Positions 5,601-29,981 of a DNA stretch of 64,000 bases are shown piece after piece. This stretch comes from Schmidtea nova (lineage: Eukaryota): positions 258,664,001 through 258,728,000 of the forward strand of contig CM097882.1 in assembly GCA_044892505.1 (NCBI GenBank), given 5' to 3'. Each line of letters starts with the position of its first letter. Positions within the stretch are counted from its first letter, which is position 1. The translations under genes and the position numbers were made by a program. A model generated the notes under the pieces. The model saw only the letters and a list, made by a program, of their open reading frames with translations. It was not told the origin of the DNA and made no database searches.

Positions 5601-8352
5601 AATCTAGCAGTAATCGACCCAACAAAACCCCTCTAAATTGATATTTCACATTTAATGGTTATTTTCCACTGATTATTTCCCCTTTAAAAATATTATTTTT
5701 TTAAAATAACAACCCATTTTATTTGAATTTGCCCTCTGTGAAAGACTACATCTAAATAGACTTCCTCTTAAGATTCACCCATCTTATAGAAATTCATCTT
5801 TACAAAGGATTTCCATTTAAGTTTTTTCTCCATGAAGAATTATCCTTTTGATTAGCATTTCACCATGACAGTTCTTCCCTTTCAATGGGATTTCCTTATT
5901 TGAATCGGTTTAACCCTTTAGGAATTTTCCCCACCCGAATGGAATTTTCTATCCATAATTTTTTTTATTTGGGTTTCTTATTTTACTGTAATTTCCCACC
6001 GCAATTTACCTTCTTTTAGTGGACTTTTCCACCTGAATTTAACATTTTTAGTGGATTTCATCATTTTCATTGGATTTTTCCATTTTTAATTGAATACAAG
6101 CCTTTTTCAATGGATTTATACTGCATGCCCTTAAAATCAATAAAAATTGAGTTTCTACCATAATTTTCAATGATACCCAATCGAATGATAACGCTGAAAA
6201 TAAATGATTTTTTAAATAGATTAGATAAATTATAAATTTAAATTAAATGAGATTTTAAATTTAAATTACAACAAACCCACAGAGAAATTATTTTCTTTAA
6301 GAATAAACAAAATTTACATAAATAATTTTTCTTAAAAGATTTTAAATAACTAAATTACTCAAATAAATGGTAAATAGTTGCAGATGAACATTAAAGAGAA
6401 AAAAAATTATTTGAAGTAATAAAGTGAAATTTAATTATAAAAATTCTCATTGAAATAGTATGGGAAATTGTAAGTGAATTTATTGATGGAAATATATTAA
6501 AAAAACAATTAATAAAAATTTTTTAAGGATCAAAAGTATTCATGAAAATGAAACATTCAGAGAAAAAATTAATCAATTTATCGATCAATTCATTCAATTA
6601 CACAAACTTTAGATTTTTAGTAGGGGGTCGCTGTATGATTATAACATAATTTATAAAGTTTAGGGATAAATGTATTGCGCCAGAAACCTCAACTCCACAT
6701 ACTCAGTTGCATTTAAAGTCAAAAATCTTTCGATGCTAATAGAAATAAAACTTTTATTCCATTTATCAAATTTAAATAAATCATTTTTGAGGATGCAAGT
6801 CATATCCACATAAAATATGAAAAATTACAAGTTTTATAAATTTTATTTTTATTTACATTTGGAGTAAGTCACATCCGACCATTTACCCATGTAAACGTTG
6901 TGATCTTTAATGTGATTTTTAAAATATTTATTACACAAATAACAGATCGTAGGAGAACGTCAAGACCTTATTTGTGCAGAATAAAAAAATTCCATTTTCT
7001 TTTTGAAATTATTTATAAAATAAGACAAAATTATTTTTTCTCTAATATCATCGATATCGGTCAAAGATTCTTTTACAAGCTTAGACCATAAAAGCTTTTA
7101 TAAGATTTTTCGAGAGTAAAGTTACTTATCAGATATTAATCAGCGAAAATAGGAATTTTCAATATATTTATCATATTTAGGTAAAACCGCCTCAAAATCG
7201 GAATATGGCTAACAATCGGATGGCTAACAATCTTAAACCAACTCTTAAAAGATAAGTTCCTATATGAAGGTAAAGTGTACAAAGTTGTACTTAACTGATA
7301 TTTTGTGCATTTAATATTTGCATTTGATATTTCTTCTTTTAATATTTCTATTTTAGTTATTAGAGTAGGTTGCATTGGGAATGATGTTTCTACATGTTCC
7401 ATGATTTGGACGATATCGAGTATAATTGTTTTGACCGGAAAATGATACATTTTATGAATAAATGTGATGTTTGCCATTTTGTTACCTTTATCATAATGTT
7501 TTAACTTTGGTCTTCATATTAATGGCTTGTCTTCATTTATCATTAGAGTCATATTTACGTTTGTTCGATATTATTATAGGTCATACGCCAAAGCGCAATA
7601 ATATTGTATCTAATCTAACATTGAATAAATGAAATTCAATCACAAATTACTAAAAGATTTTTAATAAAAATTAATATTTTATTATAAAAACATTAAAGAA
7701 ATATCGTCATACTTACCAAAATCGCCATTGATAGGGTAAAATTAAATGTAACATGGCACTGTCCATACAAATTTTTATTTAATAGCGTGTTGAGCCGAGA
7801 AAGTCAACTAAAAAAAGAAAAACAATTGAATTAATTAAAACAAAATATTAAACCATAACGAAATTAACCCATAGAGACCCAATTGAAACTATAAAAAAGT
7901 GCAAATAGAATAAAATAAAAAGGAAAATAAATTACCAATAATGCATTAAAATCTGGAAAAATAAGAGGCCCGTTGAATAGGAAAATCTATAATAAAAACA
8001 TGGAATAATGAGAAATTAGAGAAATAAAAGTACATTTTATTATTTTATTAGTTGAATTTTAATCCAGAAGGCAGGATATTGCGATCTGTCGATCAAAATA
8101 TTTGAATAAATTAAATAAATTAAATAAAAATAAGAATTACTTTGAAGGGCAGAACGATCCTGATTGGTCCGTTAGACAGGCTCAATCAGTATAAATACTG
8201 AACCAAAAATCAAAAGAATCAGAATCATTAAATTTAAACTAGTTTATTGGTCGATTATACTGAGCGTAAACTAAAGTAAGAATTTTCTGAAAACTATTCG
8301 ATAACATCTTGAGGATCAAAAAGTAATCGTTCTTGTTATATGTGGTTTGTTA

Positions 8353-9643
8353 CTTGGTACGCCCAATAAGTCGTGAGACTAATATAGAAATAATAATAGT
8401 AAAAAAATTGATACAGACATATTTAAACTTCAACATATATAGGTAAAGAAAATGTATTTTGTTTTAATAATCCATTATTGTTTAAGTATACTTTTGCGAA
8501 CATTTGAAAAATGCCTCTGGAAACTATACAATACCGTAGAGTTATTCGCTTTCTCTTTCTGAAAGGAAAAATAGAGAAGAGGTTCTTTCTGAACTGAAAG
8601 CTGTTTACCAACAAGAATGCCCATCCACAGCAACAATTGATCGATGGTTCAATTACTTTCAGAGTGGTAGAACCTCCGTGGTGGACGAAGAAAGATCTGG
8701 AAGACCCTCAGAAATTGATGAAAAAATAACGCAAAAGCTGCAGACAATCGTGCAAAACGAGAGAAAAATAACGACGAGAGAGCTCACAACCCCTCTAAAT
8801 GCGAGCAAAGGCACTGTGCATACTCTCCTCACTGAAAGTGGTATTTGAAAACTATGTTCCCGTTTTGTGCCACGCTTCTTAACGGTGGAAATGCGACAAC
8901 GACGCTTGGAATGCTGCTTGGAGAATCTGCAGATGAGGACCAATGTTGGAGACCGTTTCATTGATAATATCATCACTGTGGATGAGACACCGTTGTCCCT
9001 TTATGATCCCGAATCTAAAAGAGAGTCTCAAGAATGGAAACTGCCAGGAGAAAGCAGCTAACTGAAAATGCGGTCCTCAACTTGCCACCGAAAGGCTCTC
9101 ATGCTGACGATGTTTTTGGACGCCAAGGGCATTATTCTGGCTGACTTTGCTGAATCCGGCGTGAAGATCAATAGTTCTTACTACTCCAACATCGTGCAAC
9201 AAGCAAGGAAGGCATGACGCAAGAGCAGAGTGTGTAATTTCTATTTTTTACACGATAATGCTCCCATCCACACCAGCAGCGTTTACATGGCCAAAATTGA
9301 GCGTTGCAGGATCAATTTGCTTCCCCATCCACCATACAGCCCCAATTTGGATCCCTCTGATTTTTTCCTGTTTAACCATCTTAAGAAGCATCTGCGGGGC
9401 CAGGTGTTTGCCAACAAATATGATTTGAGAGCAGCCGTAGAGAGTTTTCTGGGAGAAAAGCCTCCAGAATTCTTCAAAAACGCCTTCGAAAACCTCTTTA
9501 TTAGCTGGGAAAATTGTGTCAGTGCAGAAGAAAATTATTTTGAGAAATGATGCCTATTTACCATGCTTGTTCTAAATACAAAGTTTTGTGTTGATATCTT
9601 AAGTCTTTCTATTTTAGTCTCACGACTTATTGGGCGCACCACG
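8353..9643 (+). mobile_element. Full-length (1291 bp) mariner element, DD34D transposase inactivated by stops and frameshifts
   Basis: TIRs CTTGGTACGCCCAATAAGTCGTGAGACTAA / TTAGTCTCACGACTTATTGGGCGCACCACG with TA on both sides. Motifs TVDET, FLHDNAP, YSPNLDPSDF, with 34 residues between the last two Asp. Confidence 0.95.
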
Positions 9644-9739: not shown

Positions 9740-11990
9740 GCGTCCTCTGTATCTCACGCCACGAGGGTGACTTCCATCTGCGTGGGGCTTCTTAGCTCCA
9801 CGAGATGGTGAGTATATTTTAGAAAAGTTTAAATGCAAACGTTTAAAAAATTAGATAACTAAAATGATTTTCACGGTATCGTGAGAAGGGTTGCACATAC
9901 GGGGTTCCAGTGAAAGGCTCATGTATAATTTTATCAGACTTCACGACGCTGGAATAAATTAAACATTATATGGACCCGAAAGCTTGTGGCTAAATGAGAA
10001 GTTTACAAGGAAGAGTATCGAGGCGGTCTAAATTCGTCCGTAACAAAAGGAGATTTGATATTGAAATGCAATTTATTTGGGTTTAATAGACATGGTGATT
10101 TTCATTTTATAGTGGGGTTGTGAATAGGGTGATTTAATATTTTTGGGAGCCCGAATAGTTACCGTTTACATAGATAATGGGACATTGGTGAGTGGATTGG
10201 AGGAGTTTGAGTTACCCTTTCCGGCAAGAGTGTCAAAGCGCTCGTGAGAGATGCCATAGTGAAATACCACAGTTCATGCGTAAGGGGTCCGATGAAATAA
10301 AGTCATAGTGATATTTGACGATGGGAGACATTGAGCGAGTCAATCCGAGTAGCGGATGTTAAGGATCATTTAATTTATATAGAATTTATAGAGATGCAGG
10401 AAGCCTGGTCAGAAATATAACAAATCGAAAATATGCGACGATATAAACAGCAAGAAAGATTCAAGACCCAACAGAAGAAAGTCCTTGGTTTGTTGAAGGA
10501 CTTACTCGCACCAATAATAAGGACAGTGGACGTACAGATGTGTAAGTGGGGCCGAGAGTTTAAATTGATCTGTCCCTTCTCGATTTGGAAGAGCACAAAG
10601 AATGAAATATGGTATCAGGGAGGCATTCATTGGCCCATTTTGATGGTATCCACATATTCTCCGCAATATACCAAATTACTGATCGTCATCATGGACGGAC
10701 AGCAGCGTCCCCGGCAGAATATTTATTGGGACTACATTCCATAGTCCGAGTTCCAGGCTCTTGGATTCTTACTACTTAGTCCGCCCCGGCTACTCAGAAG
10801 ATGCCAAAAAGAAAAATTAGAAAGATTCTCCAAAACCACTCTGAGACAGAGTTCCATCAGGCTGGGATTGCAAATTCAACGGGTGTTTGTTTGGAACTCC
10901 ACGTTATGCTTTGATTAAAAACTAATTATATTGAGGATGTCAAATATATGCATTTTCCTTTCGTGTAAAGTTGTCTGATTTATTGAATAAATTTAGGATG
11001 CGAATGTTCTAGACAATTGATCATCACTGAGTTAAATGTGTTTTGTAATTATACATGATTAAATGAAAGATTGCTTCACGTTTAGTAAATGTTGCCTATA
11101 TTCTTTCAGCATGTCTAAACCACCTGGAACACACGACACTATTACCAAGGCTCAAAATATATAGATGAATCTTGAACGGGAAGTTGAAATCTGGAAGGCT
11201 CAAGGAAACAGACCCGAGGACCAAAATTAATATCTGCGTCAGACTCTGTTCACGCCGGCCCAAATGAAAGATAAGATTAGGCGCACGGAGCGTGCCAAAC
11301 GAGCCGTTACCGAAACACAATTAGAGCCTGAGGCCAACTGAATAGAACTGAGAAAATGTCTTAACTCGGTCACCCGATCTTTTGTTGAAGTCGAGTTAAA
11401 GGTATGAATCCGGCCGATTACATTACAGCAATGGACCGAGCAATTGACAACGAGCTGCTTTGTAGGAACTGATATGAACTACCTGGTCGAAAATTCACTC
11501 AATATTCGAGACAAGTTGAAAGAAACTCTATCGAAGCGGACAGGGCCCAGAAAACGCAAAAGTATATGCGCAAAGCGTTGACCTCAGAAGAAACTGATGG
11601 CGCAGAGACTCAAAGGGCAGATTGACCTATTAGACGACTTGGCAGAGTTGGAACTGATCGCCAAAATTCTTCCCGTATGTGATTAAATATAAATCGAATT
11701 TTCTCGAAATAAATGTATAGAAATGTCTTAGTTGTAACATTTTGTAAAAGGGGGTTGATACGATTCACCAGGAATAAATAAAACAACGAAGGAAACAGGC
11801 AGCCAACGAGGAAATGCGTAAGACCTTCTATCGCCATCGAGGACGACCAATGATTAGTAGTCATGGAAACGGTGCCCACCTACTCATGGAGATTGCCGCC
11901 AATGTGCACAGTACTAACTTAGTTAACGGGGAACAACTACAGGTGCACGGTATTGGAGCATGTCATCTCTAAGAAGTCAACGGTCATGGT
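9740..11990. other. Copy 1 (more decayed) of an unclassified multi-ORF repeat family
   Basis: Translated similarity and collinearity with 18610-21270 (see findings). Boundaries approximate. Confidence 0.65.
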
Positions 11991-13621
11991 TACTATAAGT
12001 TTCCAAAACCAAACATAAGTATGAATTAATGTAAATCGAAATAGAGCAATTCAAATATTATTTGTTTGGTTTCTTAAATTAAGAACATCCATTATTTCTA
12101 AAAATAATATATTTTTAAACACAACACAAATTTCTAATATTATTCAAACAATTATTTTTTATCTCTGAGGATAATTTTGCAAGCATAATTAATTATTATG
12201 TTAATTTATAATTTTATTATAGTATTTAAATCCATTTAAAACTGAAAATTAAATACTATTTCTATTAAATTAATCTCACATTGAGGACTTACACAAACTT
12301 TTTTCAAAAGATTATTAGTTAAACAAATATATTTTTGAAAAATGACACTTGTAAAATTAAATAACAGTTTTAAAAGAACTCATTTAAAAAATTGACAAAG
12401 AAAAATCTTTTATCAGTTAATATTGAAATAAAAATCTCATGTTCTTGATTAATCGTCAAAGCCATGGCTTAATTTTTCGACCAGACGGTGTTCCGGTTCT
12501 TTTTTTTGTGTAAATAAAATTCTTTACATCACATTTACTTCTAGCATGTTTTGTTTTTTATTTTCTAATCGATGAAAAATGTAAAAAAAAATTTTATATT
12601 TAAAAAAATTATATTTTTCACATTGCAGGGTAACAAAATGTTAAAATTGAAATAAACTAATACTAGTCTTTAAAATAGCGATTCTGTATTAAAAATAGAC
12701 TATTAACTTTACTTTTACCGTGTTTTCGGGTACTTCTTTTTTCTCAAATTTGGTTAATTATGTAATTAAACATGGACAGATCTGGTATATTCCATATACT
12801 AATATATATTTTTAAATTTAGTAAGATGTAAATTTAAAATATCTCTCAGTTGACTTGATTATTAAAACAATAGAAATTAATTACAATTGAGATTAATTCT
12901 GAATTTTAATTAAAATTTTATAAATCCCAAAAATTAAGGTAGATTCATTATAACCCATAATTATGTGTTACTGGGGAATTATCCCTCTAAATTGATGCAA
13001 TAATTGTATTTTAAATAGATTTCATGTCATTATTTTAACAGAAATGTAAATTTTTATTTCTGGATTTGTTAATATTTTTGCTAAGTAATGGATTTAAGGA
13101 TGAACAAACTTGACAAAAAATAATTAGCATAAGTGAGTTAAGAGATGTGAGTCCTTTGAAATGACATAAACTAGCAAGTTTTCCCTCTGGCCCTGAAAAA
13201 ACTTTATACTTTTTTTTGACATTTTACATGACATAAATCTTTGATAACCAAAACTATTTTATAATTTTTTAAAATTTTAAAAATTTTCCTTTTGCTTTAA
13301 AATTTTTATAAAATGTGCAAAATATAATTATTTAGTAAATTACAATTTTTTAATTTGTAAAATTCATGGAAAAATTCAATCCATTAAATAAAATAATTTT
13401 CTAAATTCACTGCATAAATTATGTACTTAAATGATTGTCTCTTCCAGGAAAGCCATTGTGGCTCAGTGACATCCAGTACAAATTCGCAACTTCCCTCGTC
13501 AAAATAATTTGAACTGAGTAAATTATTTATTCGTATATAGGTAAATATACAGTTATTTGTTTTAATCAGTTATTACTTAATTAAGGAATTTTAGCATTTA
13601 TTTTAAAATATCCATAGAAAG

Positions 13622-14640
13622 CGTGCAATATCAGTGAAATTCATCTCCTCTTTATAAAAGACAAGATTAGAGAAGAAGTCAATGCAGAGATGAGTCCTGT
13701 TTATGGTGATGAGTGTCCTTTAAAAAGCAATAATTTACCATAGGTACAATTACTTTCAGAGTAGTATAACCTCAGTTTATGATGAGAAAAGGCCAGCAAG
13801 GCTCTGTGAAATCAAAGTAAAAGAAAACGAAAAACCTGAGGAAATTGGTTCAGAAGAAAAATTACAACCGGAGAGCTAATAATGCGACGAAACCTGATGA
13901 TTGGAAACTGTCTGGAGAAGTTTGTTCTAAGAATATGAGGTCATCAATAAGTCACCAAAAGGCGCTTATCTTGACAATGCTTTGAAATGTCATTGACATT
14001 ATTTTGGTTTATTTTGCAGAAAGCGGTGTTCGAATTAACCCTTTCCTATCCTGTGTCTATAAAAATATGACAAAAAAAATTAACCATTCTATCCTCTGTC
14101 TGTATATAAATGACATTATTTTTGAATTTTATTTCCAATGCACTGTCGATTATATTATGACCAACTGTTTATAGAGCGATTATGAAAAAAAAATTTTTTG
14201 AACTTTTTTTGAAATTTTATTAGGATTGGAACGGGCAAGACACATAAAATAAAGAAAATAGGAAAGGGTTAATAGCTCCTATTACTCTAGACTTCTACAA
14301 AAAACAAGGATTCTTCGAAGGAGAAGTAGGAGTGTGGTCTCTATTCTTACACGATAACGCTCCCATGCACACAAGTGCAGTTTCAATTGGCACAATTGAG
14401 AGTCGTGGACTTAACGTATTTTTCCTTCCTCTTTGTCGTTCTAATTTGGCTCTATGTGACTTTTACTTGTTTAATCATCTCAAATAATCCTTACGAGTCC
14501 TGCAAATTTCAATAAAAGACGAATTCAAAGATGTAGTGACGCATTTTAATGGCGAAAAGTCTCAGAATTTCTTTAAAATCGCATTACAAAACCTGCTTAC
14601 ACACGGCAGAAAATGTGTCGATGAAAAATAAACCATATAT
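13622..14640 (+). mobile_element. Decayed, internally deleted mariner of the same subfamily as 8353-9643
   Basis: SHQKALILTML..IILVYFAESGVRINSSYY matches CHRKALMLTMF..IILADFAESGVKINSSYY of the first mariner. FLHDNAPMHTS and DFYLFNHLK are present. Confidence 0.85.
14039..14268. mobile_element. 230-bp piggyBac-type MITE inserted in the mariner
   Basis: TTAA at 14035-14038 and 14269-14272; TIR CCCTTTCCTAT / ATAGGAAAGGG. Removing it restores GVR-INSSYY. Confidence 0.9.
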
Positions 14641-14714
14641 AACTTGGTTTTAGTAAATATGAAATATATTTGCGTTCATTTATTTATTTCTATACGAATC
14701 TCGCTACTTATGTA

Positions 14715-14850
14715 ACAAGATAAGCCTTTGCTGCAAAGTTTTATTGGGTGAACATTTTCAATTATCAAATAATCTTCATCAATCATCAATCAATTGTTTA
14801 TAATAAAAATCTTTTACCCATTAAAACTTTGCAGCAAAGGCTTATCATGT
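14715..14850. mobile_element. 136-bp TA-flanked MITE
   Basis: TIR ACAAGATAAGCCTTTGCTGCAAAGTTTTATTGGG / CCCATTAAAACTTTGCAGCAAAGGCTTATCATGT, with TA on both sides. Confidence 0.8.
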
Positions 14851-14852
14851 TA

Positions 14853-15681
14853 CGTGGTGCGGTCAAAAAGTTTCCGGCCAACCCTACTTAACAAATTGAT
14901 TTTTTAATGGAAATAGGTTTATTTCATTGGAAATTTATTGACAATTTCATGTTGACCTAATCCATTTACTTTATCTGTTGCAGATGGAAATGTCGTTGCA
15001 AGTGCATTCACTGGGAAAAATTGAGTATCGCAGTGTTATTCGCTTTTGTGTTCTTCTCGGCCAAACCAACCAGGAAATCATGGCAAATCTGAATCGAACC
15101 TATGGCGAAAAGTGTCCCTCTCAGTCTACCATCAAGTTTTGGATTGCTGAATTCAAACGGGGTCGGCAAAGTGTGTCAGATGAGGAACGAGAGGGTCGAC
15201 CAACGACTTTGAGAAATGAAGATGTGAAGGAAAAATTGGAGAAAATGGTACTGGAAAATTGCCGTATAACTACTAGGCAGCTGGAAGAATCCCTACAAAT
15301 ATTACACGGCACCGTAGTGCAATTATTGAAAGACCTTAACTTCAACAAGGTGGTGTCTCGCTTTGTGCCTCGCTTTTTGACAACTAAGATGTGCAATAAC
15401 CGAAAGAATGCGTGTCTCATGAACCTCGCCATTTACCGCAAGTATGGAGAAAGATTTATCCAAAACATCCTCACTGTTGATGAGACACCGTTGCCCTTAC
15501 ATCAGCCTGAATCAAAGCGAGAGTCTATGGAATGGAGAAAGCTGGAAGAAGGAAAAGTTTGGAAGTCTCGTTCCGGAATGTCGCACAGACGGGAACTCAT
15601 GTTGACTGTGTTTTGGAGTCATAAGGGAGTGATCCTCACCGACTTTCTTGAGATGGGACGGACAATCAGCGGAGAATATTA
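14853..15681 (+). mobile_element. 3'-truncated mariner (5' TIR, HTH and first catalytic Asp; ORF from 14978)
   Basis: TA-CGTGGTGCGGTCAAAAAG terminus. Protein has EYRSVIRF, WIAEFKRGR, SRFVPRFLT, TVDETP, MLTVFW. It stops at a MITE insertion. Confidence 0.9.
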
Positions 15682-16019
15682 CGGTAAAACGTATTTATTA
15701 ATTATTCAAAACAGGTATTAGTATTGATAATAAATTAATATCAAGTAGTTTTGATTTGTTTCAATACTCTAAAATAGAAAATATTAATTTATGTATAATT
15801 TGAATAAATTTTAGTAATTATTTAACGATTTCAAAAGTCAAGATGTAATTTATTCATTGGTGGGATCTGTCTATGAAATATTGAAGCTGATACAATTACT
15901 CAATTTTATTTAAATAATAACTTTAATGCTTGAACCTTTCAATAAACTCTCCTTTCACAATTACGTAACGAGGCGGTCTTGTTTTTCATTGTCGAATCCG
16001 TAAAGCAAATACGTTTCCG
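15682..16019. mobile_element. Probable TA-flanked MITE truncating the third mariner
   Basis: TA-CGGTAAAACGTATTT ... AAATACGTTTCCG-TA imperfect TIR. Confidence 0.55.
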
Positions 16020-16317
16020 TAAAAAATGCTGTTAAATAAACTTTTCTCAATTGAATTCATTGATTCGAATCGTGTTCCTTTAAGCACCGATGTCAATTAA
16101 AACGAAAATCATTGTTACAAGGGAAGAAGTCTGACGAATTCGATGGATGTTACAAGATATTGGTCTGTCAAGAACTGCTTCGGAGAAAGTATAGTATGAA
16201 AAGGAGAATTGTTATAAGAATGTGACGATATTTATTTTATGTTCTTTTATCGGATGTAAGTAGCAAAGGAATTTGTAGAGCCCAACAGAGTCTCCAGTAA
16301 AAAATATTGTTTCGGGA

Positions 16318-16370
16318 CTGCGTGCGTGCGTGCGTGCGTTCGTGCGTGCGTGCGTGCGTGCGTGCGTGCG
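16318..16370. repeat. (TGCG)n microsatellite
   Basis: Direct observation. Confidence 0.95.
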
Positions 16371-17259
16371 TATGTATTTATTAAATATTTACAATTAACA
16401 AATCACAAATTGTATTCAAAACGAACAAAAGTGAAAACCAGAACTCCCTAATTTAGTGTCGTAAAAGTTTCCTTTTTGAAAGTCTTTTATTTTTATTTTC
16501 TATTTTTTCTTCTATTTTAAGATCTTGTTGGTTTAATTAATTCTTGTTGGATTTATTATAATATGTTTTTTTATAATTTAGTTTATTATAATTTGGCTTC
16601 TTGTTATTTACCTTTCCAAATGCTCCACTTTTTAATTTATTCTTTTGGATTCTTTTTCCTTTGGATTTTTAGGGTAGCATTATTATTCAAATATTTTCCA
16701 TAGTTATTCCAATTTTAATTTTTAATTTTTAACTTTTATAGATTTTTTTATATTTATATTATCTTAATTATTATAATATGATAAAATTGGTAATTCAAAA
16801 TAATATAAAGGGGGAAAACATCACACACCCGATGAATAAAACAATTAACAAAATTAAAAAGCAAAATGCAAAATGCAAAAATTAAACCTTTACACAAGAT
16901 ATTGGTCTGTCAAGAACTGCTTCGGAGAAAGTATAGTATAAAAAGGAGAATTGTATTGATGAATAAAGAAACTTCTATCCGTTTTATTTTACTCTTTCTC
17001 TCAGCTTTGTCAACCCCTTTTTATAGTATTACCGATTCACTAATGTATCATCTAGATCTAATTATGCCATAAGAAAGCCATAAAAATCATAATGAGCATG
17101 GCCTTGAACATGGACTTGTTTTGACGGACTTTTTGGTCAATTCTGAATGTGTAAAATATTATAATTTTGGAGTTGTGTCTAGAGTTAATTTTGAATTTTC
17201 ATTTTAACAGCCTTGTAAAAATATTATGAACATTGTAATTATTGTAATTATTGTTAGAT

Positions 17260-17326
17260 ACACGATATCTCGGCACAGCCTTTATCAGGTGTGCAGTTGA
17301 TAAAGGCTGTGCCGAAATATCATGTA
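17260..17326. ncRNA. Inverted pair of Penelope-type minimal hammerhead motifs (one per strand), both degenerate
   Basis: Plus strand: TTGATAA-A-GGC TGT GCC-GAAA-TATC. Minus strand: CACAC-CTGATAA-A-GGC TGT GCC-GAGA-TATC-GTGT. Confidence 0.65.
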
Positions 17327-18009
17327 CGCATCAACCAAAAAAATTTAGATCTATAGTTCTACAATTATTAATATGAAAATTATTGAATTAAATAAATATA
17401 ACTTGTTTTAATTTATTAATCTTTAAATCTGATTGATTTATTTGTTTTACTGGTTCAGTTTTATTATTTAGAAATAGAAGTAATCATTTTACGCCAATGA
17501 GCTCTGGAGAATCGAGAAATGCTTTTGTTTAAACTTACAAAGATGATGAGGCACAGGTCCCGGTCCATAATTTATTTCTTATAAACGAATCATTTTTTGT
17601 TTGTCAGATTAAAAAAAATTTAATTATTTTTAAATTAAAAAAAAACAAAAATAATAAAAAAGATAACTATGTCGAACAATTCCCAGAAATATTTGTTGTC
17701 ATCGTAGTCAAACACCTACACAACCTGAATGCATATTCCATCTGGATTTGTGGCGGATTTACACATTGAATACGAATGGATTGTCAGATGACATTTTCAT
17801 CATTGAAAAAAATCCTCAACCTGAAATCAGTCATCAAGTTAGAAAGTATAAAATAGCAAGAGATTATTACAAAAATTTTCACTGTTGTAAACTATCGAAG
17901 AAAATTTCATGTTTTTTATCTTCAATCCGGTCTAAATTTACTTTGTCGGTGTAAAATGATGATTTATTATAATTATAATATATTAGTAATAATAATAAAA
18001 ATAATCATA

Positions 18010-18013
18010 ATAA

Positions 18014-18072
<59 letters not shown>
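18010..18072. repeat. (AAT)n microsatellite
   Basis: Direct observation. Confidence 0.95.
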
Positions 18073-18075
<3 letters not shown>

Positions 18076-18609
18076 TAATAATGTTGGGCCAGGCAAACCA
18101 TCGATAATCTGAAAGAAAAATAAAATCAATACAAATAAATAATATAAAAACAGTAACAAAATAAATAACCAAGCACCGACAATTCAGCAATGTGCAGTAG
18201 AATCTGAAAGTAATAAACCATGAATTAAAATAAGTAATGACAATAAAAACTCACCCATGCGAAATACCAATAACTTGAAACTCTGACAGGGCGTGGGCAG
18301 ATATCACCGATAATCTACAATGAAATAAATTATAACAAAAAGATTCACGGATGATTAAACAACAACTTACTGAATTAGGTACACAAAGAAAAACATTAAA
18401 AATGAAATGCACACAATATCTGCACGCACACTAAATTATGATTGGCTGGCCGGCAACAAAAATTAGTATATAAGCAGCAGTCAAATTCAGTGTAAGAGAG
18501 TCTTATGCCATTACACCTTGTGTATTGAAGATATACCTGTAAAGCAATTGAATCGAAATAAAAGGTATGTTTATGTGAATTTTGATTTCTATAAACCCTC
18601 ATGATTAAC

Positions 18610-21270
18610 ATTCATAAGTTGTCCCGAAGGTCATCCGATCTGACGGGATCTTGGGCCTCTCAGCGCAACACATTTTCATGTGAGGGCTGATGCGGCGAAT
18701 GAATATGTTTTCTAAAATGATTTTGGGAAGGGGTGCACATAGGCATTGTTGTTCCAATTCTATCGACACTAGGGTCTAGCTGCACAGGAATTTAGAGTTG
18801 ATGCAGTTGATACTTGAGCGAGGTAAGTTCAATGAAGGCACCACCAGAACCAAGTAACTCGTCATAGCGATCAAAGATAAAGGGTAGGTACATAGTAGTA
18901 TAATTAGCAAATCGCTCTAGGAAGTCGAGGCCCTAGCAGCAGATACATTGGCGTGTCGCACGTTAATTTCACAAAGTTGCAGCTACATATTAAAAGGATA
19001 GGGTCCATCAGCGCACGTCGTGTGCAACAATCCAGACAACCTACAACAATAGTAATGAGCGCGAACACCCGAGTTTGTGCGTGAGATCAACATACTAACA
19101 ATGTACAAATAGAACTAAAACCCATCCCATCCAGAAATGTCGTTGTCCTGAGAGAGTCGCCAACATGAAAATTGTTTTACATTGAAAAAATAAAGTATGG
19201 TGATCTAGTCAATGCCTTTTGCTGAGTGAATGATGGTTTGAACAAGTTCATGCATTGTACGTTGAACCATAATAATCAATAGATCAACCAGGGATAGGCG
19301 TAGTAGAATAGATGAAATTCACCGTAAGCCAGCACGAGTACAACCAATATACTCTCATAAAATACTATGATGTGATCATTAATTTAGAATCCAGAATCCG
19401 ACTAAACTGAATGACTTACAGGTAAAAGTAAAGTTTTGTTTGAATAATAGTTTGAGAATGTCTGTATGAGGCGAATGATAATTAAATGCGTGATTGATGA
19501 TCCAGAAATTAGTCGAAAAGAAAATCACGCCAACAACGAGATCAGCCCCCGAAGCAGACATTCATTGACACAAATTCGACTCCAGAACGGATTAGGAGGT
19601 CTGCCGAACGCCATCTTCGGGCGTGGAAGCGTCACCATGTGGACGTCGAGGTGCGAGTAATGGCGTTTACCTTCAAGCTTCGAATCCGATGGGAAGGAGA
19701 CCCATCGTGGCCGGTGTCTCCGGACACTATGACGGAAACACAGGAAAAATGGTTCCTTCAATTCGAGGACGAGCAGGCCGTGCCCCGTTGGATCCTTCCG
19801 TTCAGCCCCATATCCGGCCAGGAGCTTAGACGGCTAGGCTACATACTGCTAGATCGGACAAGGTGCATCCGCACCGGAAAACTTCAACCCTACACCAATG
19901 CCCCCGGAAATCGGGATATAGATCAAAATGAGTGGAGCTGCGGAGTTCAGCTCTGGGAGGTATTTACCTTCCAGGATGAGTTGTGTTGGAATCCATGCCC
20001 AAAAATCTACCAGAAAGATGGAAAAGGACTAGCCGAGCGAGGATACGATCAAGATTTGGTCGACTTTCTATAAATATCCGACAATTGACAAAGCGATTTA
20101 CATGTGTTTCATCTTTAATAAATGAATGTCTTGTTAATCGTTTTATTTTCTGAATGTTTGCGGTGAAAATGTTTGGGGCATATATGGACTGAATAGCGAC
20201 CAGGAAGCAATGTGTTGTTTTGAGACAATTGACAATGATGATGATGTATGGGAGGGAAATAAGCGAGATCGGCGGAACCTATTATGTAGAGAATATACTA
20301 ACCAACCCACTTTTCCTTTAAGATGGATGTAGCAAAAGATCACCAATACAAGGAAGAGGCGAAACTGTCCCGAAAGCGAGTAAAAGCCCTCGAGAGTCAC
20401 CTGAAACAGCTAGACACCGAGATGTCCCGAATAAAAACAACTTGGTTCCATCCAGAACGGGTTAAAACCATCCAACAATCTAGATATCGAGCGGAACGAG
20501 CATTAGAAGAGCAGGCGTGCGAAACCGCAGCAGTCAAGCTAGAGCTCAGTAACTATCTATGCGCCTCTACAAAAGAATTTATTGAGCAGCAGCTGAAGCC
20601 TCTCATTCGTACGAGCACATTCAATCGTTGGGTTAAGTCGACTAGAGTCGAAATAGGAGTGCAAACCGATGTAGGTCCAACCCCAAGTCCAGAAAGCTCG
20701 GAGAAAGTTCGTCAGCCGGAGGGATCGAAACGCACCAAGAGAAGGAACCGCCTAGGCGCTAAGAGGCGTCGAGAAAGACGAGCATACGCGGAAAGAATTG
20801 GAATCGAGGTGGATCTCTTGAGTGGGTTGACTGAAAGGCAATTGTTGGCCGTAATCAATTCTGCTGTATTACTGGATAAAATAAATGTATTATCGTTAAA
20901 GGGTAGCCTTATAAATGAATGTGGAATGAATGATAATTTAAATAAACGAATGATTAAGTATATCTAAATCATTGATGCCAAGGGACATGAGGAATGTAAA
21001 TCAACCCCAGACGCAATGAGTTTAAATAAATGAGAGGGGACCGGAAGAAAACCACACAGACCTTCTATCGGTAATGGTGGACCCGTGAATAAATAAGGGA
21101 ATTGTAGCCGCAAGGTTGCTCACCTGCCTTATCATTTCACAACGTTGATACAGTTCCAACATGATGAGTAGTTAGGGATAAATCATGGGTATCAGCGGGG
21201 AAAGCGTTTTATGTTGGCGAGATTACCCTAACCAACCATATCAATATAATCTCCGTCGCAAAATCCGACC
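18610..21270. other. Copy 2 of the unclassified multi-ORF family; ORF-A about 19570-20073 (+), ORF-B 20323-20967 (+), decayed ORF on minus at about 18620-18930
   Basis: GC-richer than its flanks, with ORFs of 144 and 214 aa; homologous to 9740-11990. Boundaries approximate. Confidence 0.7.
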
Positions 21271-21279
21271 AACAAACCA

Positions 21280-21378
21280 GCAATAATAATAATAATAATA
21301 ATAATATTATCAATAATTCTCATAATGATGACTATAGATCAAAATTTTTTTATAAACAATAACACAATATTTCGGCAC
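21280..21378 (-). mobile_element. Penelope-like pseudo-LTR 3' end with partial hammerhead, next to (AAT)n; cut by a gap
   Basis: Reverse complement GTGCCGAAATATTGTGTTATTGTTTATAAAAAAATTTTGATCTATAGTCAT is nearly identical to the copies at 34.4 and 58.2 kb. Confidence 0.8.
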
Positions 21379-23532
21379 NNNNNNNNNNNNNNNNNNNNNN
21401 NNNNNNNNNNNNNNNNNNNNNNNNNNNNNNNNNNNNNNNNNNNNNNNNNNNNNNNNNNNNNNNNNNNNNNNNNNNNNNNNNNNNNNNNNNNNNNNNNNNN
21501 NNNNNNNNNNNNNNNNNNNNNNNNNNNNNNNNNNNNNNNNNNGATTTAATAAATAAAAATTACTACTCAGATAGACAAAAATTGATGTTTGATTTTAAAA
21601 TCTTCTAAAAAATTCTTATAGTCATTATGAACGCGTCATATGTGAAGCGTTGTTGGTAAGAACTTTGAATCTAAAGATTATTGTACAGAATGCAGTGAAA
21701 ACGTGCATTTTAAATGTTTTTAAATAGTTTGGATAATATCCCCGGTGTGTTGCTGTATTAATTAGAGTGGATTAAAAAATGAGTTTTATAATTAAATAAA
21801 TAATTTTTAAAAATTCATTAATAAATTAAAATTTTTAAATCATTTAAAAAAATATTTTTTAAATTAATTTTTAATGAATAAAATTAGACGTTTATTAAAA
21901 TAATATTTAAAATTCATGTAATTTTATTAAATTTGTTTAAGATATTGAATCATACATAGTTTTTTTTCTGGATGTCTATTGCCTGAAGATGATAACAAGT
22001 CTTTCAAAATATATAGTTAAGAGTTTATATGAATGGCGTTTTCAATAAAAATACTAANNNNNNNNNNNNNNNNNNNNNNNNNNNNNNNNNNNNNNNNNNN
22101 NNNNNNNNNNNNNNNNNNNNNNNNNNNNNNNNNNNNNNNNNNNNNNNNNNNNNNNNNNNNNNNNNNNNNNNNNNNNNNNNNNNNNNNNNNNNNNNNNNNN
22201 NNNNNNNNNNNNNNNNNNNNNNNNNNNNNNNNNNNNNNNNNNNNNNNNNNNNNNNNNNNNNNNNNNNNNNNNNNNNNNNNNNNNNNNNNNNNNNNNNNNN
22301 NNNNNNNNNNNNNNNNNNNNNNNNNNNNNNNNNNNNNNNNNNAAGTGAAAAACTCAGAAATCTCTATAGCAAGTATTGGTAATAAAGCGAGAATGAATTC
22401 CTGAAGTATCTGAAAACCAGTTTACAATGAAATATTTCATTTCAATAATGAAACGCAAACTGCATCTACACTCGATATCGTGTTCCCATCAACGAATGTG
22501 ACCCCTACCCCATCTCGCTTACTGATAAACTATGGAACGATAATTGATCTACAACGGAATACTGATTCTGTCAGCCATCTGCACAGATGCTATCTTAAGT
22601 ATATCAAATCGAATATCTAGTAACTTGAAACTAGTGGAGGACCTGATATTGATTATTCTACCCGCACAGATTCTAGTAGAGAATTCATCAAAGAAATAAT
22701 GATAGACTAATTTAGTATTCAACGATATAGAAGAGTGGCATTTGAGGAGAGAAGTAGAAAGCCTCGATAGGCATGAGAATGAATTATTGAAATCACAAAA
22801 AATAAAAATTAAGTTCCATATTGTTTTTGATGATAAAATTTTAATTCCGAGTAAATTTAGCATTCGGAAATAATTAATTATCATAACTGTTCTGTCTATT
22901 AGTTCTTATATTGATAACTATTATTATTATTCAAATATCTCTCCAATAGTCTTGGAGTAATAAATGGAATGGTTCCACCTGTTGCCATAGATTTCAGGGA
23001 ACATTATAAGTTTTATTTATGGTTCATGATAAGGATAATTTATGATTACCATATTATTTACACTATAAATTTACATCCTCTTCTACGGTAAATGTATATT
23101 TTTAAATAGAAAAATAAAATTAATTAGAAAATAAGATAAGTTTGTTTTTTAAAAAAGAATATGTAGCGTTATCTAGATTTCAATTTGGGAATATATTCTC
23201 AAAAATATTGAATTAACTACTTTCTGCATGACTTTTTTATTTCTGAAAATTAAAAATAAAAAAGAATTATTTTCAAAAATTTTATGTTTTAATAGTAAAA
23301 ATTCAAAATATTATTTTTGTTCAAACATGAAATTCTTGGCAGTAAGTTGTAATATTTACATGTAATCGCATTTGTTATATTTTTGTGAAATTACAGAAAA
23401 CAATTTCTGTTTTAATCGAGTTACAAATTAACCTCAAACTTTCAGCTCAAGACTTTAAGACCTACCAGAAGTCTATGGATAATTGCACATCAGACATACT
23501 TTTCCTTATATCAGTTAATTTTCAATACTATC

Positions 23533-24039
23533 TTTAGTAGCTGCAAAAACAATTATTAAGACGAAAAAAAATACATTCAATAAAACAAATTGTTCTTTCT
23601 TAGCTGCAGATATATCATCAGCTTTCACCGTTGAATTAATCTTCTTATGCTTCATGAAATAACTGTCTTTAATGCGCTCTGGAATATCAATGGTAGAAAT
23701 ATCTATCTTTGTGCTTGTAGTAATAACTGGGGTGATTGATTGTCTCATTCGCCTATTGTGCTCACTGAATTCTTTCGTACGATTTGAGTTCTTTTTAATT
23801 GCAACATTCGATTGGTAACTTTGTGGTTTGCGTTGGGTTTTAATTTGTGCAGCTTCCATTTTTTGTAAATTGCTTCTTGCTTGTTGTTTTTTGAAAAAGG
23901 CATAAAGTGCCATTTTTTTGTGATTTAAAACAAATTGATTTTTTTTATATAAATAAATTGATAATTGATTTTAATATATAAATAATATGACATTTAATTA
24001 AATAATATAATAACATATAATTATAACGGAGGCACTAAA
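23533..24039 (-). repeat. 3' LTR
   Basis: Direct repeat of 29340-29846; I saw about 3 substitutions. G-rich PPT (GGCGGGGG on minus) at about 24044-24051. Confidence 0.95.
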
Positions 24040-24090
24040 ATAGCCCCCGCCGAAGTACGCGGAGCGTATGGGAAAGGAAAAAACACGAAT

Positions 24091-25895
24091 TCAAGGATCT
24101 GAGTGGAAATGGAGATGGTAGTCTGAGAGATACTGTGGAGGACGGCGGATGCGATTGTGTGACAATGGGTTGCGAAATGTTTCGGTCTGCGGAATTGGAA
24201 AGGGTTGGTGAGCCTGTGGGTCTGGGTCAAATGTGGGGTCTTCGGTTAGATCTTCATCTGACTGGTGGTGTAGTGGAAGTTCGTTGTCCTGATCCGCTAA
24301 TATAAGAGCCGGTTTTAGGCGGTTCAGGTTTATGATGTGTGTTGTACCATCTATGTATAGTTCGGCCGTGTTTTTGTGTATTTTGATAATCGGGTATGGT
24401 CCTTTATACCGGGGCTTCAAACTGGATGAGTCAATGCATTTTAACCAGGCGTGTGAGGCTGAGGTAAGAGTATGCGGCATGTAGGGTTTGTAAGAGGTAG
24501 AGTATGTGAAGGACGGATTTGAGTCTAGAGCTAGGAAGTGGCTGCGGGCCTGGTTTATTTGTTGGAGAGACGATTCGGAGTCTGTTTCTATAAGTTCTGA
24601 TGGCATGCGTGTGTTAGCGCCGAACAGTAATTGTGCCGGGGAGACTCCACTTGAGCGATTGGGTGTGTTGTGCCATCCAAGTAGAACGAACGGCAGAGAC
24701 TTTGTCCATCCGGAGGAGGATGCGAGAATACGAAGTGAGGTCTTGATAGTGCGGTGGGCACGTTCGACAAGACCGTTGGTCTGTGGGTGATAGGCAGAGG
24801 TGCGTATGTGTTTAATGCTTAGCGCGTTTGTCAGGTAATTAAATAAGTCCGATTCGAATTGGCGCCCTTGGTCTGTAATGATGGTTGTAGGGATACCGTA
24901 ACGGGAAAGCCAGGTAGACACTAAGAAGTCTGCAACAGTGGGTGCTGTGATATTGGGTATGGGTACTGCTTCGAACCAGCGCGTCTTACGATCTATCATT
25001 GTAAGGATGAAGGAGAATCCGTTGTCCGCCGGAAGTGGTCCCACGAGATCAATGTGCAAAATATCGAAGCGGGAGCCTGTGGGGAAAGGGGTGAGCGGTA
25101 GTTTGACATGTTTGTGAACTTTATGCTGCTGGCACCCTTGACACTCACTTACCCATCGTTTGACGTCTTTGAATAGGGCGTACCAGGTGACTTTCTGGCG
25201 TAGTAGTGCGTATGTCGATTTGATGCCGGGATGGTGTAGGTTGTGAACTGCGAAAAACGCTTCTTTGCGAAGTGACTCGTGTAGAATGGGGCGTAGCGTA
25301 TTGTTGAAAGATGTGTCGTAATGCACACCGTCGATGAGTTTGTGGGAGTCTTTGAACCTGGAAATATCTTTCTCAGAAGGAGGCGTGGATGAAAGGATAT
25401 CTAGCGAGAAGATAGGAGAAAAAGATATTGAGGTTATGATCGCGCGCGAAAGGCAGTCTGCAATGACGTTGTCTCCACCTGCTATGTGTTTGATCACGAA
25501 ATCAAACGATGATAGAAATGCTAGTTGACGAAATACCCTATTCGATGGATCTTTCATGGTGAGGCAGTGTAGGAGAGGTTTGTGGTCGGTGAATATTGTG
25601 AAATGTCTACCCTCTAGGAAGTGTCGGAAATGTTTCACGGCCAGCACGATGGCTAGTAGCTCTCTGTCGAAGGCACTGTACCTTGTTTCTGCTAATGAGA
25701 ATTTACGGGAAGAGAATTTGATGGGACGGGAAACGTTGTCTTTAATCTGATGGAGAACAGCCCCAGCTGCTATGTCCGAGGCGTCGGTGGTTAGAGTGAA
25801 TGGCAGGTCGTTATGTGGGTAATACAGCTTTGAGATATTAGTCAATGCGTTTTTTACGTTGATGAAGGCCTGATCCGTTTCGTCGGACCATTTTA
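24091..25895 (-). CDS. pol: Pol C-terminal part: RT connection, RNase H, integrase
   Basis: [20 protein letters not shown] (HNLHHPG...CQGC), [29 protein letters not shown]. Separated from the RT frame by a 1-nt deletion near 25905 (GPKKAIIKW restored by one extra A). Confidence 0.95.
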
Positions 25896-27629
25896 TTATA
25901 GCCTTTTGGGGCCGTGATTGAGTGCTGACAGTGGTGCGGTAATGCGGGACGAGTTTGGGATAAATCTGTGGCAGAAGTTTACAGTTACGAGAAAGCTGCG
26001 AAGCTCTGTGACCGTGGACGGTTTGGGAAATGACCGGATAATGTCTAGCCTTTCTGGGAATGGTTCACATCCGTCTGCAGACAGTATGTGTCCTAGAAAA
26101 CGGACGCGCGACTTGAAGAATTGACATTTTTCAACGCTAATCTGAAGGTTATTTTTGTCGAGGACTTCAAAAACCTGTATTAAGTCTCTTGCGTGTGAGG
26201 ATTCGTCAGTAGAAGCGACAATGATATCGTCTAGATAGACGAAGGTGTGGTTGAGATGTCTGAAAGTGATGTCCATGAAGCGTTGGAGTGTTTGTGCGGC
26301 ATTCCTAAGGCCGAATGGCATGAACAAGTATTCGAAATTGCCGAAAGGGGTAGTTACAGCTGTTTTTGGAACGTCATCTGGATTTACAGGGAACTGGTGA
26401 AATGCTTTGGCGAGGTCGATCGTTGAAAAGACTGTATTCCCCGAAAAACGTGAAAATAGGTCCTTAATGAGAGGCATAGGGTAGGCGTCATGAATCGTTA
26501 CGCTGTTCAACGCTCGAAAATCACCACAAGGGCGGAAGGAGCCATCTTTTTTCGTGACTACATGGATAGGGGAAGCCCATGGGGAGGACGTGCGTCGAAT
26601 GATGCCTTTGTCTTCGAGTTCGGAAAATTCTAGTTCGACGGCCTGTCGTCTATTAATAGCCAGAGGCCTGGAACGAGCGCTTTGTGGTGTGCATGGAACA
26701 GTGGTGATGAAATGGACGGATTCTTTGCTGGGTACGTGTGTGGTAGACTTGGTGAGGAGGTTCGGGAAATTTGTGGCGATGACTGATTCTACGTTGTCTG
26801 TTGTTAAAGTGATTGTTGTTTTTGGCGACACTATCGCGGAAACTGGATGAGGGAGTTGATACAGTTTTCTATTTTTACAGTCGATGTTCACTTCTTCGGT
26901 AGTTAAGAAATCGAGACCTAGAATCGGGAATGTTGTGTCGGCAATGTAAAATGAGTGCGAGAAACGTTTAGAAAGGCCGGGAAGGCGAAATTCGATTGTT
27001 TTCGTACCGGAGAGCATTATGTGCGTACCGTTTGCGGCTATGGCGGAGGATGAGCAGGGTGTGTCTGCAGTGAAGGTGGTGGGTAGAATTGAATATGACG
27101 AACCTGTGTCTATAAGGACTGTTATTGTGCGTTGTTTGGGTTGTCCGTGTGCTTCTAACAGTTCGGCGGTGATGGTGAAATTTCCGGGAGTTCTGGTTAA
27201 AATTGATGTGGCCAGGGTTGCTCTGTTAATGGTGGAGGTGGTGGTCGGTAACGGTGGTGGTAGGATGCTCGTGTTGTCTGTGGGAATTTCGTAGTGAGGA
27301 GGGGTGAGTGGTGTTTGTGGCATTGATAGTGGCGCTTTTAGTGGTTTTATGCACGTTGATGTTGGTAATGATGCAGGCGGTTCTGAGAATGGTGTTTTTG
27401 TTGTAGGTGGCGTTTGTGTTTGTGTTGTGCGGGTTGTGCTGAGTGGTGTAGTGAGTTGAGCTGTGCGAAGAAATTGTCGTGCGTGGTGAGTAGTGGTCAT
27501 GCCTGAAATGGTGTTTGCTGGAGGAGTTGATATTGTGTACGCTGGACGTGGTTTGCTGTGAGGAAGAGTGTTCACTGGCAGGAAGTCATCGGAGCGTCCA
27601 GGAATATCCGATGACTCAGTTAGTTTTTT
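25896..27629 (-). CDS. pol: Pol N-terminal part: Thr/Pro-rich linker, aspartic protease, reverse transcriptase
   Basis: [36 protein letters not shown]. Confidence 0.95.
27575..27629 (-). promoter_or_regulatory. -1 programmed ribosomal frameshift signal between gag and pol
   Basis: A AAA AAC heptamer (27629-27623) immediately before the gag TAA. A 10-bp stem AGTCATCGGA/TCCGATGACT starts 6 nt downstream. A -1 shift enters the pol frame (KKLTES). Confidence 0.85.
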
Positions 27630-29846: not shown

Positions 29847-29907
29847 CTATCCTGTTAAGCTATTTATATTTTGTGTCCTTGTTGTATCCTTCACAATGAC
29901 TTAGTTT

Positions 29908-29909
<2 letters not shown>

Positions 29910-29981
<72 letters not shown>
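29910..29981. repeat. (TA)n microsatellite
   Basis: Direct observation. Confidence 0.95.

Follow-up and report, generated by a model that had tools for sequence, protein, structure and literature searches.

Two related units lie in the window, the 64,000-nucleotide stretch of Schmidtea nova DNA analysed as a whole, and both are solo long terminal repeats (LTRs) from two old lineages of one ~30-kb Burro-like Ty3/gypsy retroelement. All features of the window described here are on the plus strand. Copy 2 spans 18082 to 21282 (3,201 bp, TGTTGGG...CCAGCA), and its 4-bp target site duplication (TSD), ATAA, lies in an (AAT)n tract. Copy 1 begins with TGTTGAG at 7788 and ends near 12021, where decay leaves the 3′ end defined to ±6 nt. 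Its TSD is unreadable, and it is split by a 1.3-kb Tc1/mariner insertion (8353 to 9643) that is foreign to the LTR, with TIRs, a TA TSD, and DDE_3 (E 4.9e-6) and HTH matches under the curated cut-offs. Minus the mariner, copy 1 measures ~2.94 kb, and its relatives L032/L112 and L034/L113 are units of 2.93–2.95 kb with exact 4-bp TSDs. Both window copies are old, decayed members of the family. These limits replace those of a sequence-only reading (9740–11990 and 18610–21270), which had also reported no LTR, when each unit is itself one.

That reading described the two regions as collinear and similar mainly at the protein level, and this is borne out. The ORF-B copies align with a score of 158 and the ORF-A copies with a score of 83 (0/1000 shuffles in each case, with maxima of 59 and 52), and profile–profile comparison between lineages gives probabilities of 99.6% for ORF-B and 97.0% for ORF-A, whereas the whole-region DNA score of 37 is not above its shuffles (mean 34, max 43).

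Parent element and solo state of the window copies

Young intact relatives define the parent element. In all four elements fetched, LTR pairs of 3.1–3.2 kb that are 99.4–100% identical lie 26.6–27.2 kb apart, and a 4-bp TSD is present. The 5′ LTR is followed by TAAATT and then by the primer binding site (PBS), an 18-nt complement of host tRNA-Pro(TGG) plus CCA that starts 6 nt past the LTR; 406 such LTR–PBS junctions were counted. The young elements are 29.7–30.3 kb long, with a 24-kb interior that carries gag-env-pol. The polyprotein frame is 5,666–5,687 aa in three of the four and is split by one stop in the fourth; the 5,685-aa frame reads Gag-Env-PR-RT-RH-IN, with PR-RT-RH-IN in the Ty3/gypsy order, and its domains are CCHC, a fusion-protein Env (Monjiviricetes_fusion, E 3e-70, between CCHC and PR), PR, RT, RH, IN and Ank. 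RING and TRAF-MATH are found on separate ORFs, the latter 3′ of the polyprotein. The stretch before the 3′ LTR, where a polypurine tract was sought, is G/C-rich and not a clean purine run. Among 30 PBS loci, ORF-B lies in the LTR at 11, all 11 of which have the RING ORF, as against 0 of the other 19.

The published account of Burro/GYPSM1, as far as its available text goes, describes giant planarian Ty3/gypsy elements of ~30 kb, present in thousands of copies, with one ~5,000-aa frame containing Gag CCHC knuckles, an in-frame Env between Gag and PR, PR-RT-RH-IN and ankyrin, together with RING and MATH/TRAF modules (PMC6431247). The parent shares the ~30-kb size, the single large frame, the position of Env, the ankyrin, RING and MATH/TRAF modules and the copy number in the thousands, and differs in its frame of 5,685 aa and in having TRAF-MATH on a separate ORF. 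BIR, BCL2-like, dUTPase-like and Smc motifs gave no Pfam match in element E1, the published Burro calls having been made partly by HHpred; BIR was found in a different, 21-kb family that shares the PBS. The parent is Burro-like by size, layout and domains, in a comparison with Burro1–4/GYPSM1 made by description and not by sequence.

No PBS was found after either window copy, and in searches beside them the polyprotein and internal ORFs matched only an unrelated gypsy element at 24.6–26.6 kb. A member of copy 2's lineage at G000:C3:97591490(-) is a 5′ LTR joined to the PBS, RING ORF and polyprotein. Copy 1's own lineage yielded no PBS-linked member, and it is the ends, TSDs and homology that mark copy 1 as a probable LTR. 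In 18 distinct solo units (22 rows minus 2 duplicates and 2 5′ LTRs), the TSD is exact in 13 and has at most one mismatch in 17. Two other arrangements were rejected: the copies as two ends of one element, since they belong to different lineages and have no interior, and a non-LTR, (AAT)n-tailed element, since the 29 other loci have diverse flanks, most of them not AAT tracts. LTR–LTR recombination would have left the solo copies, which would then have decayed neutrally; recombination between an element's two LTRs is an established route to a solo LTR.

The majority of the copies fetched are free-standing and have TSDs of their own, and first-look candidates number up to ~9,000, as might be expected of a stand-alone endogenous virus or a non-autonomous mini-element with its own nucleocapsid. 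The 63 exact 3′-end matches contain no LTR pairs. The LTR unit, however, occurs in near-identical direct repeats on either side of the 24-kb gag-env-pol interiors, together with a PBS, which refutes a stand-alone origin, and solo LTRs explain the free copies; we regard a stand-alone element as extremely improbable. From the earlier proposal of a virus-like mobile family, the mobility, the virus-like character and the real coding frames survive, while the compact, stand-alone, unrecognised and divergently organised element gives way to a gypsy LTR. The same reading had set its proposal against a mapping of the ORFs to a known TE accessory region, and that is largely where they lie, in the LTR of a Burro-like gypsy element.

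Two coding frames within the LTR

Both LTRs contain the whole of ORF-A (159 aa) and ORF-B (~198 aa), and the two frames are intact in the young elements. In copy 1, ORF-A (10394 to 10915) has in-frame stops at 10418 and 10742 and an acceptor-like TTTATAG 2 nt before the ATG, and ORF-B (11111 to 11686) has five in-frame stops and an acceptor-like TTTTCAG 1 nt before the ATG; they match the intact young frames at 35% (E 2e-21) and 44% (E 2e-40), respectively. In copy 2, ORF-A (19513 to 20073) has 186 open codons, its start not being defined in this copy, and ORF-B (20323 to 20967) is open for 214 codons, with the acceptor-like CCTTTAAG directly before its ATG and an AATAAA near 20878; ORF-B of many members of this lineage stops near codon 185–187.

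For variants present in at least 3 copies, dN/dS is 0.03–0.17 in all six ORF-lineage sets, the copies having been selected for matches free of frameshifts and aligned in frame 0. Singleton variants give 0.59–1.5 and four other frames 0.93–18; the antisense shadow frame is also low (0.19–0.36) and has more shared stops per set (2–13 versus 0–3). The pattern of variants indicates that ORF-A and ORF-B are kept under purifying selection in three lineages. This contradicts the view of the frames as passively carried relics of internal sequence that was captured and serves no purpose in the LTR, as do the intact frames of young elements and a protein homology that outlasts DNA similarity. An ORF-B fragment 3′ of the PBS at one locus (L227/T3) and the persistence of several LTR families without ORF-A and ORF-B would fit relics, which we nevertheless consider very unlikely.

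The ORF-B model is helical, with long helices, an Arg/Lys-rich patch and a short hydrophobic C-terminal helix (pTM 0.37). At least 8 K/R fall within 15 residues in 44 of 45 members, the median pI is 9.9, and a loose Leu-rich pattern resembling a nuclear export signal (NES) occurs in 37 of 45, modestly above shuffles (mean 26, max 35). Pfam returned nothing over cut-off for either ORF; the weak matches in ORF-B include bZIP_1 (8 of 45 members, E 1e-4) and the poorer REV (4 of 45, best E 0.0038); where one member was examined in detail, both fall on its basic patch. Protein database searches with the window ORF-B and alignments A1 and A2, which covered near lengths only, found no relative, and a PDB sequence search gave no match for A2 and only matches at E ≥0.25 for A1. 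The ORF-A model (pLDDT 68) had no Foldseek match in PDB or BFVD at E ≤0.001, its best VIA hits (Z 3.3, GNAT-like rows) are not trusted, and the ESM Atlas gave only 0.85 leads. These blank fold searches do not establish a new fold. The suggestion that ORF-B is nucleocapsid-like is not upheld, as Gag with CCHC knuckles is already encoded by the parent itself and the ORF-B model has no BFVD match at E ≤0.001.

Putative signals and RNA structure of the LTR

Both ORFs are downstream of a conserved CCAAT/TATA and a donor-like GT. The putative promoter block of copy 1 (8163 to 8330) comprises ATTGG (reverse CCAAT) at 8163, TATAAATA at 8190, an Inr-like AATCA and a donor-like GTAAT at 8323; that of copy 2 (18441 to 18570) comprises ATTGG at 18441, TATATAAG at 18467, an Inr-like TCAGT and a donor-like AAG|GTATG at 18565. 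The spacing is conserved in 17 of 19 LTR rows from three lineages. Of the 89 copies that have the ORF-B ATG (98 examined), 68 have an AG no more than 7 nt from it, and AATAAA follows the ORF-B stop in 16 of 17; these are counts of motifs in AT-rich DNA, given without a background rate. In E1, an AG is positioned 0–3 nt before the ATG of 5 of 7 long ORFs, the two without being the polyprotein at its first Met and one 3′ ORF. ORF-A of copy 2's lineage has an acceptor in only 8 of 30, with no clear acceptor and a poorly defined start. Contigs of unspecified type from four sequence runs gave no GT..AG joint among the alignments listed, a result that carries no information about expression.

After the donor comes a conserved non-coding block, at 9740 to 9897 in copy 1, ending in GGTTGCACA, and at 18618 to 18739 in copy 2, ending in GGGTGCACA. 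These ends had been read as a minus-strand ORF relic (MCNPSH versus MCTPSQ). The frame beyond MCxPS is just 15 codons long in copy 1; in copy 2 it reaches 26 (by eye), and the 45 listed of 51 matches, some of which come from the RING ORF and not the LTR, range over 4–53 codons; the site is a conserved GG(G/T)TGCACA DNA motif. A second conserved block, part of a terminal ~270 nt shared by many LTR families, contains covarying RNA helices (11813 to 11960 in copy 1, where it is decayed, and 21050 to 21210 in copy 2), with two-sided changes at 22 of 28 pairs. The 13-mer noted earlier at 11821 and 21058 is confirmed and marks the start of this block, just 5′ of the covarying structure. No Rfam family matched the LTR. 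An HDV/twister-like ribozyme, weighed by eye, was likewise set aside, and a pseudoknot between columns 32–35 and 91–94 is unsupported, pairing in 93.8% of cells with no two-sided change.

The pol-less relative T1 has 1,737-bp LTRs, 100% identical, without ORF-A or ORF-B. Its LTR retains TATA/Inr and both cis blocks, with the young-lineage version of the post-donor block kept at 81% over 101 nt; the ATTGG box is absent at the expected spacing, as is AATAAA at the post-ORF-B position. Because T1 keeps the cis blocks and not the ORFs, the ORFs likely act in trans. Because T1 is without the post-ORF-B AATAAA, and the hexamer of the terminal block varies and sits in a stem, neither signal clearly marks where genomic RNA would end.

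Proposed expression and its meaning

From these motifs, transcription would start ~410 nt into the LTR, a short first exon would be spliced from one donor (~+520) to the acceptor before ORF-A or ORF-B, and the RNA would end at the AATAAA after ORF-B, a scheme that we find quite likely as a whole. Each solo LTR would, on this scheme, carry two genes as a self-contained cassette, and the ORFs would fall in the transcribed R/U5 and not in U3. Retroviral genes that overlap the LTR are typically placed within or partly across U3, with expression from the 3′ end; in the present element both ORFs are complete, follow a TATA that belongs to the LTR itself, and occur in each LTR of a pair as well as in solo LTRs. 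A placement in a long U3 has models in MMTV sag and the foamy virus internal promoter: the CCAAT/TATA at +390 would be an accessory-gene promoter, and genomic RNA would start near the LTR 3′ end. It would spare the element an R of >2 kb, which we infer would need very long strong-stop DNA and read-through of the 5′-LTR poly(A) signal, and it could accommodate the wide conservation of the terminal block. It is at odds with the ORF-less T1 LTR, which keeps TATA/Inr with no accessory ORFs to express; no conserved TATA was seen by eye ahead of the terminal block, and that block is likely transcribed because it covaries as RNA. We judge the U3 placement unlikely.

With the ORFs in R/U5, full-length RNA would retain the 2-kb intron and would need an export or processing factor. 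ORF-B may be such a factor, Rev/Rex-like, whose target would be a structured element, for instance the covarying terminal block, with ORF-A a second regulator; taken jointly, these steps are proposed tentatively. Small spliced accessory ORFs, some in or overlapping the LTR, are familiar from MMTV sag, HIV nef, foamy bel/tas and Rev/Rex/Rec, and include basic RNA-binding export factors. The role proposed for ORF-B has a precedent, described in the available part of the source, in the Ty3/gypsy element Cer1 CERV of C. elegans, whose accessory protein, made from a spliced mRNA, is needed to export unspliced genomic RNA from the nucleus (PMC10309623). ORF-A and ORF-B may also be likened to the conserved extra ORFs, of unknown function, that a partial view of the source describes in the large gypsy elements Ogre, Tat and Retand of plants (PMC7264820).

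It is also possible, though somewhat doubtful, that ORF-B is a bZIP-like or Tat/Tas-like activator, or that ORF-A and ORF-B counter piRNA/PIWI silencing, and that neither concerns RNA export. The basic patch and long helices of ORF-B suit an activator, and bZIP_1 is jointly the most frequent and the lowest-E weak Pfam match; yet in ORF-B the long helices come before the basic patch, in the opposite order to a bZIP, and no structural match was found. Counter-silencing would fit the repression of planarian Burro elements by SMEDWI-2 (PMC8532177, as far as its available text goes) and the parent's RING, TRAF-MATH and Ank modules, if these are aimed at host pathways.

Solo LTRs are usually regarded as non-coding promoter relics, and the interior of an LTR is an unusual place for genes; the two whole ORFs are the unusual part here. 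No account of ORFs within a Burro or gypsy LTR turned up in the literature searched, although Grohme 2018 or Repbase may already show them, and the available text of PMC6431247 does not mention them in the Burro LTR. We consider it reasonably probable that the window holds Burro-like solo LTRs with two selected frames that are likely spliced accessory regulators acting in trans. That they form a complex-retrovirus-style module in the transcribed part of a gypsy LTR whose R exceeds 2 kb, comprising a Rev/Rex-like export factor, a second regulator without a matched fold and a structured RNA response element, each intact solo LTR being an autonomous cassette, is a speculative extension that we doubt more than we favour. 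If it is true, intact solo LTRs would supply trans factors to full-length and pol-less relatives genome-wide, and the R of >2 kb, if real, would be a reverse-transcription puzzle. With two selected genes behind its putative promoter, the LTR turns thousands of solo copies into potential protein cassettes, which a knockdown aimed at the element interior would miss. The two small proteins, both unclassified, and the covarying RNA element make the control of Burro-type elements testable, whether it acts through export, activation or counter-silencing.

Solo LTRs in the window

Both multi-ORF copies in the window are solo LTRs of Ty3/gypsy elements, each containing ORF-A and ORF-B. The unit is present in many copies in the AT-rich, 1.25-Gb genome (G000): two copy searches gave first-look totals of 9,260 and 8,709 candidates, with 150 scored in each. 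The ends that the sequence-only reading had left to be defined could be placed, as could the target-site duplication (TSD) of copy 2. Copy 2 begins with TGTTGGG at 18082 in the alignment of loci and has a 4-bp TSD, ATAA; all 30 examined loci align to 21282 or nearby, and the 29 shown have 3′ ends of ...CCA(A/G)CA followed by varied flanks. The TSD is exact in 13/18 units and has at most one mismatch in 17/18, the 18 being 22 two-ended rows less two duplicates and two 5′ LTRs. Copy 1 extends from 7788 to near 12021, where its 3′ end is decayed, and is interrupted by a mariner (8353–9643). The closest relatives found are only ∼86% (copy 2) and ∼81% (copy 1) identical in DNA, and both insertions are therefore old. 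No parent-element interior lies close to either copy, and they are therefore two independent solo LTRs.

A second, decayed mariner (14248–15721) separates the copies. Elsewhere in the window are an ordinary-size Ty3/gypsy element on the minus strand (23527–29852; 519-bp LTRs 98.7% identical, gag/pol frames), extensive tandem and inverted repeat arrays (30204–31144 and 36868–48994), and exon-like frames (35026–35892 and 58708–59283) resembling an ABCD-type transporter and a cyclic-nucleotide phosphodiesterase, which we take to be putative host genes.

The parent element and its relatives

With copy 1 ORF-B as query, stop-free relatives were found in same-strand pairs spaced ∼26.6 kb apart, and all four fetched pairs are full elements of 29.7–30.3 kb with LTRs 99.4–100% identical and 4-bp TSDs. 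The 5′ LTR is followed by TAAATT and a primer-binding site (PBS), an 18-nt complement of host tRNA-Pro(TGG) plus CCA; the 6-nt spacer is seen at positions 6272–6277 of fetched stretch L144. The tRNA-Pro(TGG) pattern has 1,105 matches genome-wide, and the genes form a long tandem array of 308-bp period from C1:459609705 onward (L254–L257). The interior encodes a RING ORF, a 5,685-aa frame with CCHC, fusion-type Env, PR, RT, RH, IN and ankyrin domains, a TRAF-MATH ORF, and two further ORFs. Ahead of the 3′ LTR of one such element, E1, is a G/C-rich palindromic stretch instead of a clean polypurine tract. Compared by description rather than sequence, this architecture matches that published for Burro elements (PMC6431247), and from this type of element the host is probably a planarian.

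The copy 2 lineage is also found as a 5′ LTR with PBS, RING ORF, and a broken polyprotein 46–91% identical to the young one. For the lineage of copy 1, no LTR–PBS–interior junction was found in the G000 searches; this lineage is nearer the young family (44% identity in ORF-B), and the tree agrees.

A very young multi-ORF family of ∼21 kb (1,295 first-look candidates), one of whose ORFs (399 aa) carries a BIR domain, was observed at C1:131908001–131958000 (L094–L098), C1:554205001–554242000 (L104–L107) and C1:245524001–245562000 (L108–L111). It is frequently duplicated at 21–22-kb spacing with >99.3% identity. The family shares the tRNA-Pro PBS, encodes a homolog of the RING ORF, and includes a 1,045-aa ORF that matches polyprotein sequence on either side of pol; it is likely a Burro derivative that has lost pol and lacks ORF-A/B. 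Nested within it in L096–L097 (R1 27485–37595) is a Polinton-like insert with integrase-like and 1,426-aa ORFs, recognized by eye.

Homology and selection of ORF-A and ORF-B

The proposal that the two regions are collinear homologues at the protein level is borne out. ORF-B aligns over ∼145 residues between copies (score 158) and ORF-A more weakly (score 83), neither score being reached in 1000 shuffles, and a six-frame scan of ORF-B (149 vs a shuffle maximum of 55) is consistent with the pairwise result. The shuffled controls uphold the protein alignments and not the DNA alignment, whole-region similarity being no more than chance. Profile–profile comparison of lineages gives probabilities of 99.6% (ORF-B) and 97.0% (ORF-A), with cross-ORF controls <0.3%.

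ORF-A and ORF-B are real genes of the LTR. Both frames, of 159 aa (ORF-A) and ∼198 aa (ORF-B), are intact in each LTR of young elements. The dN/dS comparison suggested earlier was made among lineage copies: across six ORF-lineage sets (14–45 copies each, <90% alike, ≥72% cover), variants common to at least three copies have dN/dS of 0.03–0.17 and so indicate purifying selection on both ORFs, with some bias toward frame 0 from the choice of frameshift-free copies. Singleton variants are near neutral (0.59–1.5), a pattern of selection while replicating, then decay once inserted. Four other frames give 0.93–18, and the antisense shadow frame 0.19–0.36 with shared stops more numerous than in the ORFs.

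Predicted expression and function

In 17/19 LTR rows from three lineages, an ATTGG box and a TATA element (LTR +328–403) precede an Inr-like motif and then a donor-like GT at an aligned position. An AG lies within 7 nt of the ORF-B ATG in 68/89 ATG-bearing copies, and AATAAA directly follows the ORF-B stop in 16/17 (both raw counts, uncorrected for background). In E1, five of seven long ORFs have an AG 0–3 nt ahead of the ATG, the exceptions being the polyprotein and one 3′ ORF. The acceptor-like AG of ORF-A is clear in young and copy 1 examples, and is found in just 8/30 in the copy 2 lineage. These motifs suggest that ORF-A and ORF-B would be expressed from the LTR promoter via the donor-like GT to the AG before each ORF.

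As a natural deletion test, 30 of 406 PBS loci were examined: in 11, the LTR carries ORF-B and is followed by the RING ORF; in 18, neither ORF-B nor a RING ORF is present inside 1.5 kb; and in one, a fragment of ORF-B lies 3′ of the PBS. That fragment (L227/L242:6602–6976), with an ORF-less LTR ahead, may reflect capture or nested insertion. T1 (C1:5564964–5579204; L234–L235) is a non-autonomous, gag-only relative of 14.2 kb whose identical 1,737-bp LTRs lack ORF-A/B but retain TATA/Inr along with both the post-donor and the terminal block. The LTR promoter is therefore likely the genomic promoter, with the ORFs in the transcribed part and dispensable in cis; counting against this reading, T1 has neither the ATTGG box nor the post-ORF-B AATAAA. 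Sequence-run contigs pile up far above ORF level on both conserved blocks (18596–18711 and 21032–21263), hinting at many ORF-less relatives with these blocks only, though depth is not copy number.

The 13-mer noted at 11821 and 21058 is real and shared, as the invariant 5′ edge of a ∼150-nt covarying RNA block close to the LTR end. Two-sided changes occur in 22/28 predicted pairs (20 sequences), and in a version with 30 pairs, pairing holds in 93% of cells vs 32–41% with slid partners, the structure being derived from the same alignment of related sequences. No Rfam family matched the block. The supposed minus-strand ORF relic (MCxPS) is instead a conserved DNA motif, and the short frames behind it vary.

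The ORF-B model (pLDDT 82, pTM 0.37) begins at the N terminus with two long helices and a WF kink, after which a disordered linker leads to a basic helix and a short helix at the C terminus; a K/R patch is conserved in 44/45, and the NES-like signal is weak. ORF-A is modeled as a small basic α/β domain (pLDDT 68). No relatives of either protein were detected. The nucleocapsid-like role first suggested for ORF-B is unlikely, because the parent Gag has its own CCHC knuckles. We tentatively favor a Rev/Rex-like role, since full-length RNA would keep a 2-kb intron; that ORF-B is a transactivator or anti-silencing factor is a close rival, only slightly less likely. Cer1 CERV offers a gypsy precedent for a Rev/Rex-like role (PMC10309623).

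No description of ORFs within the LTRs of Burro or gypsy elements appeared in the literature searched; Grohme 2018 and Repbase, outside it, may show them. The element is of a known kind, and two selected genes inside its LTR apparently constitute an architecture not yet described, for which retroviral sag, nef, bel, and Rev/Rex are parallels.
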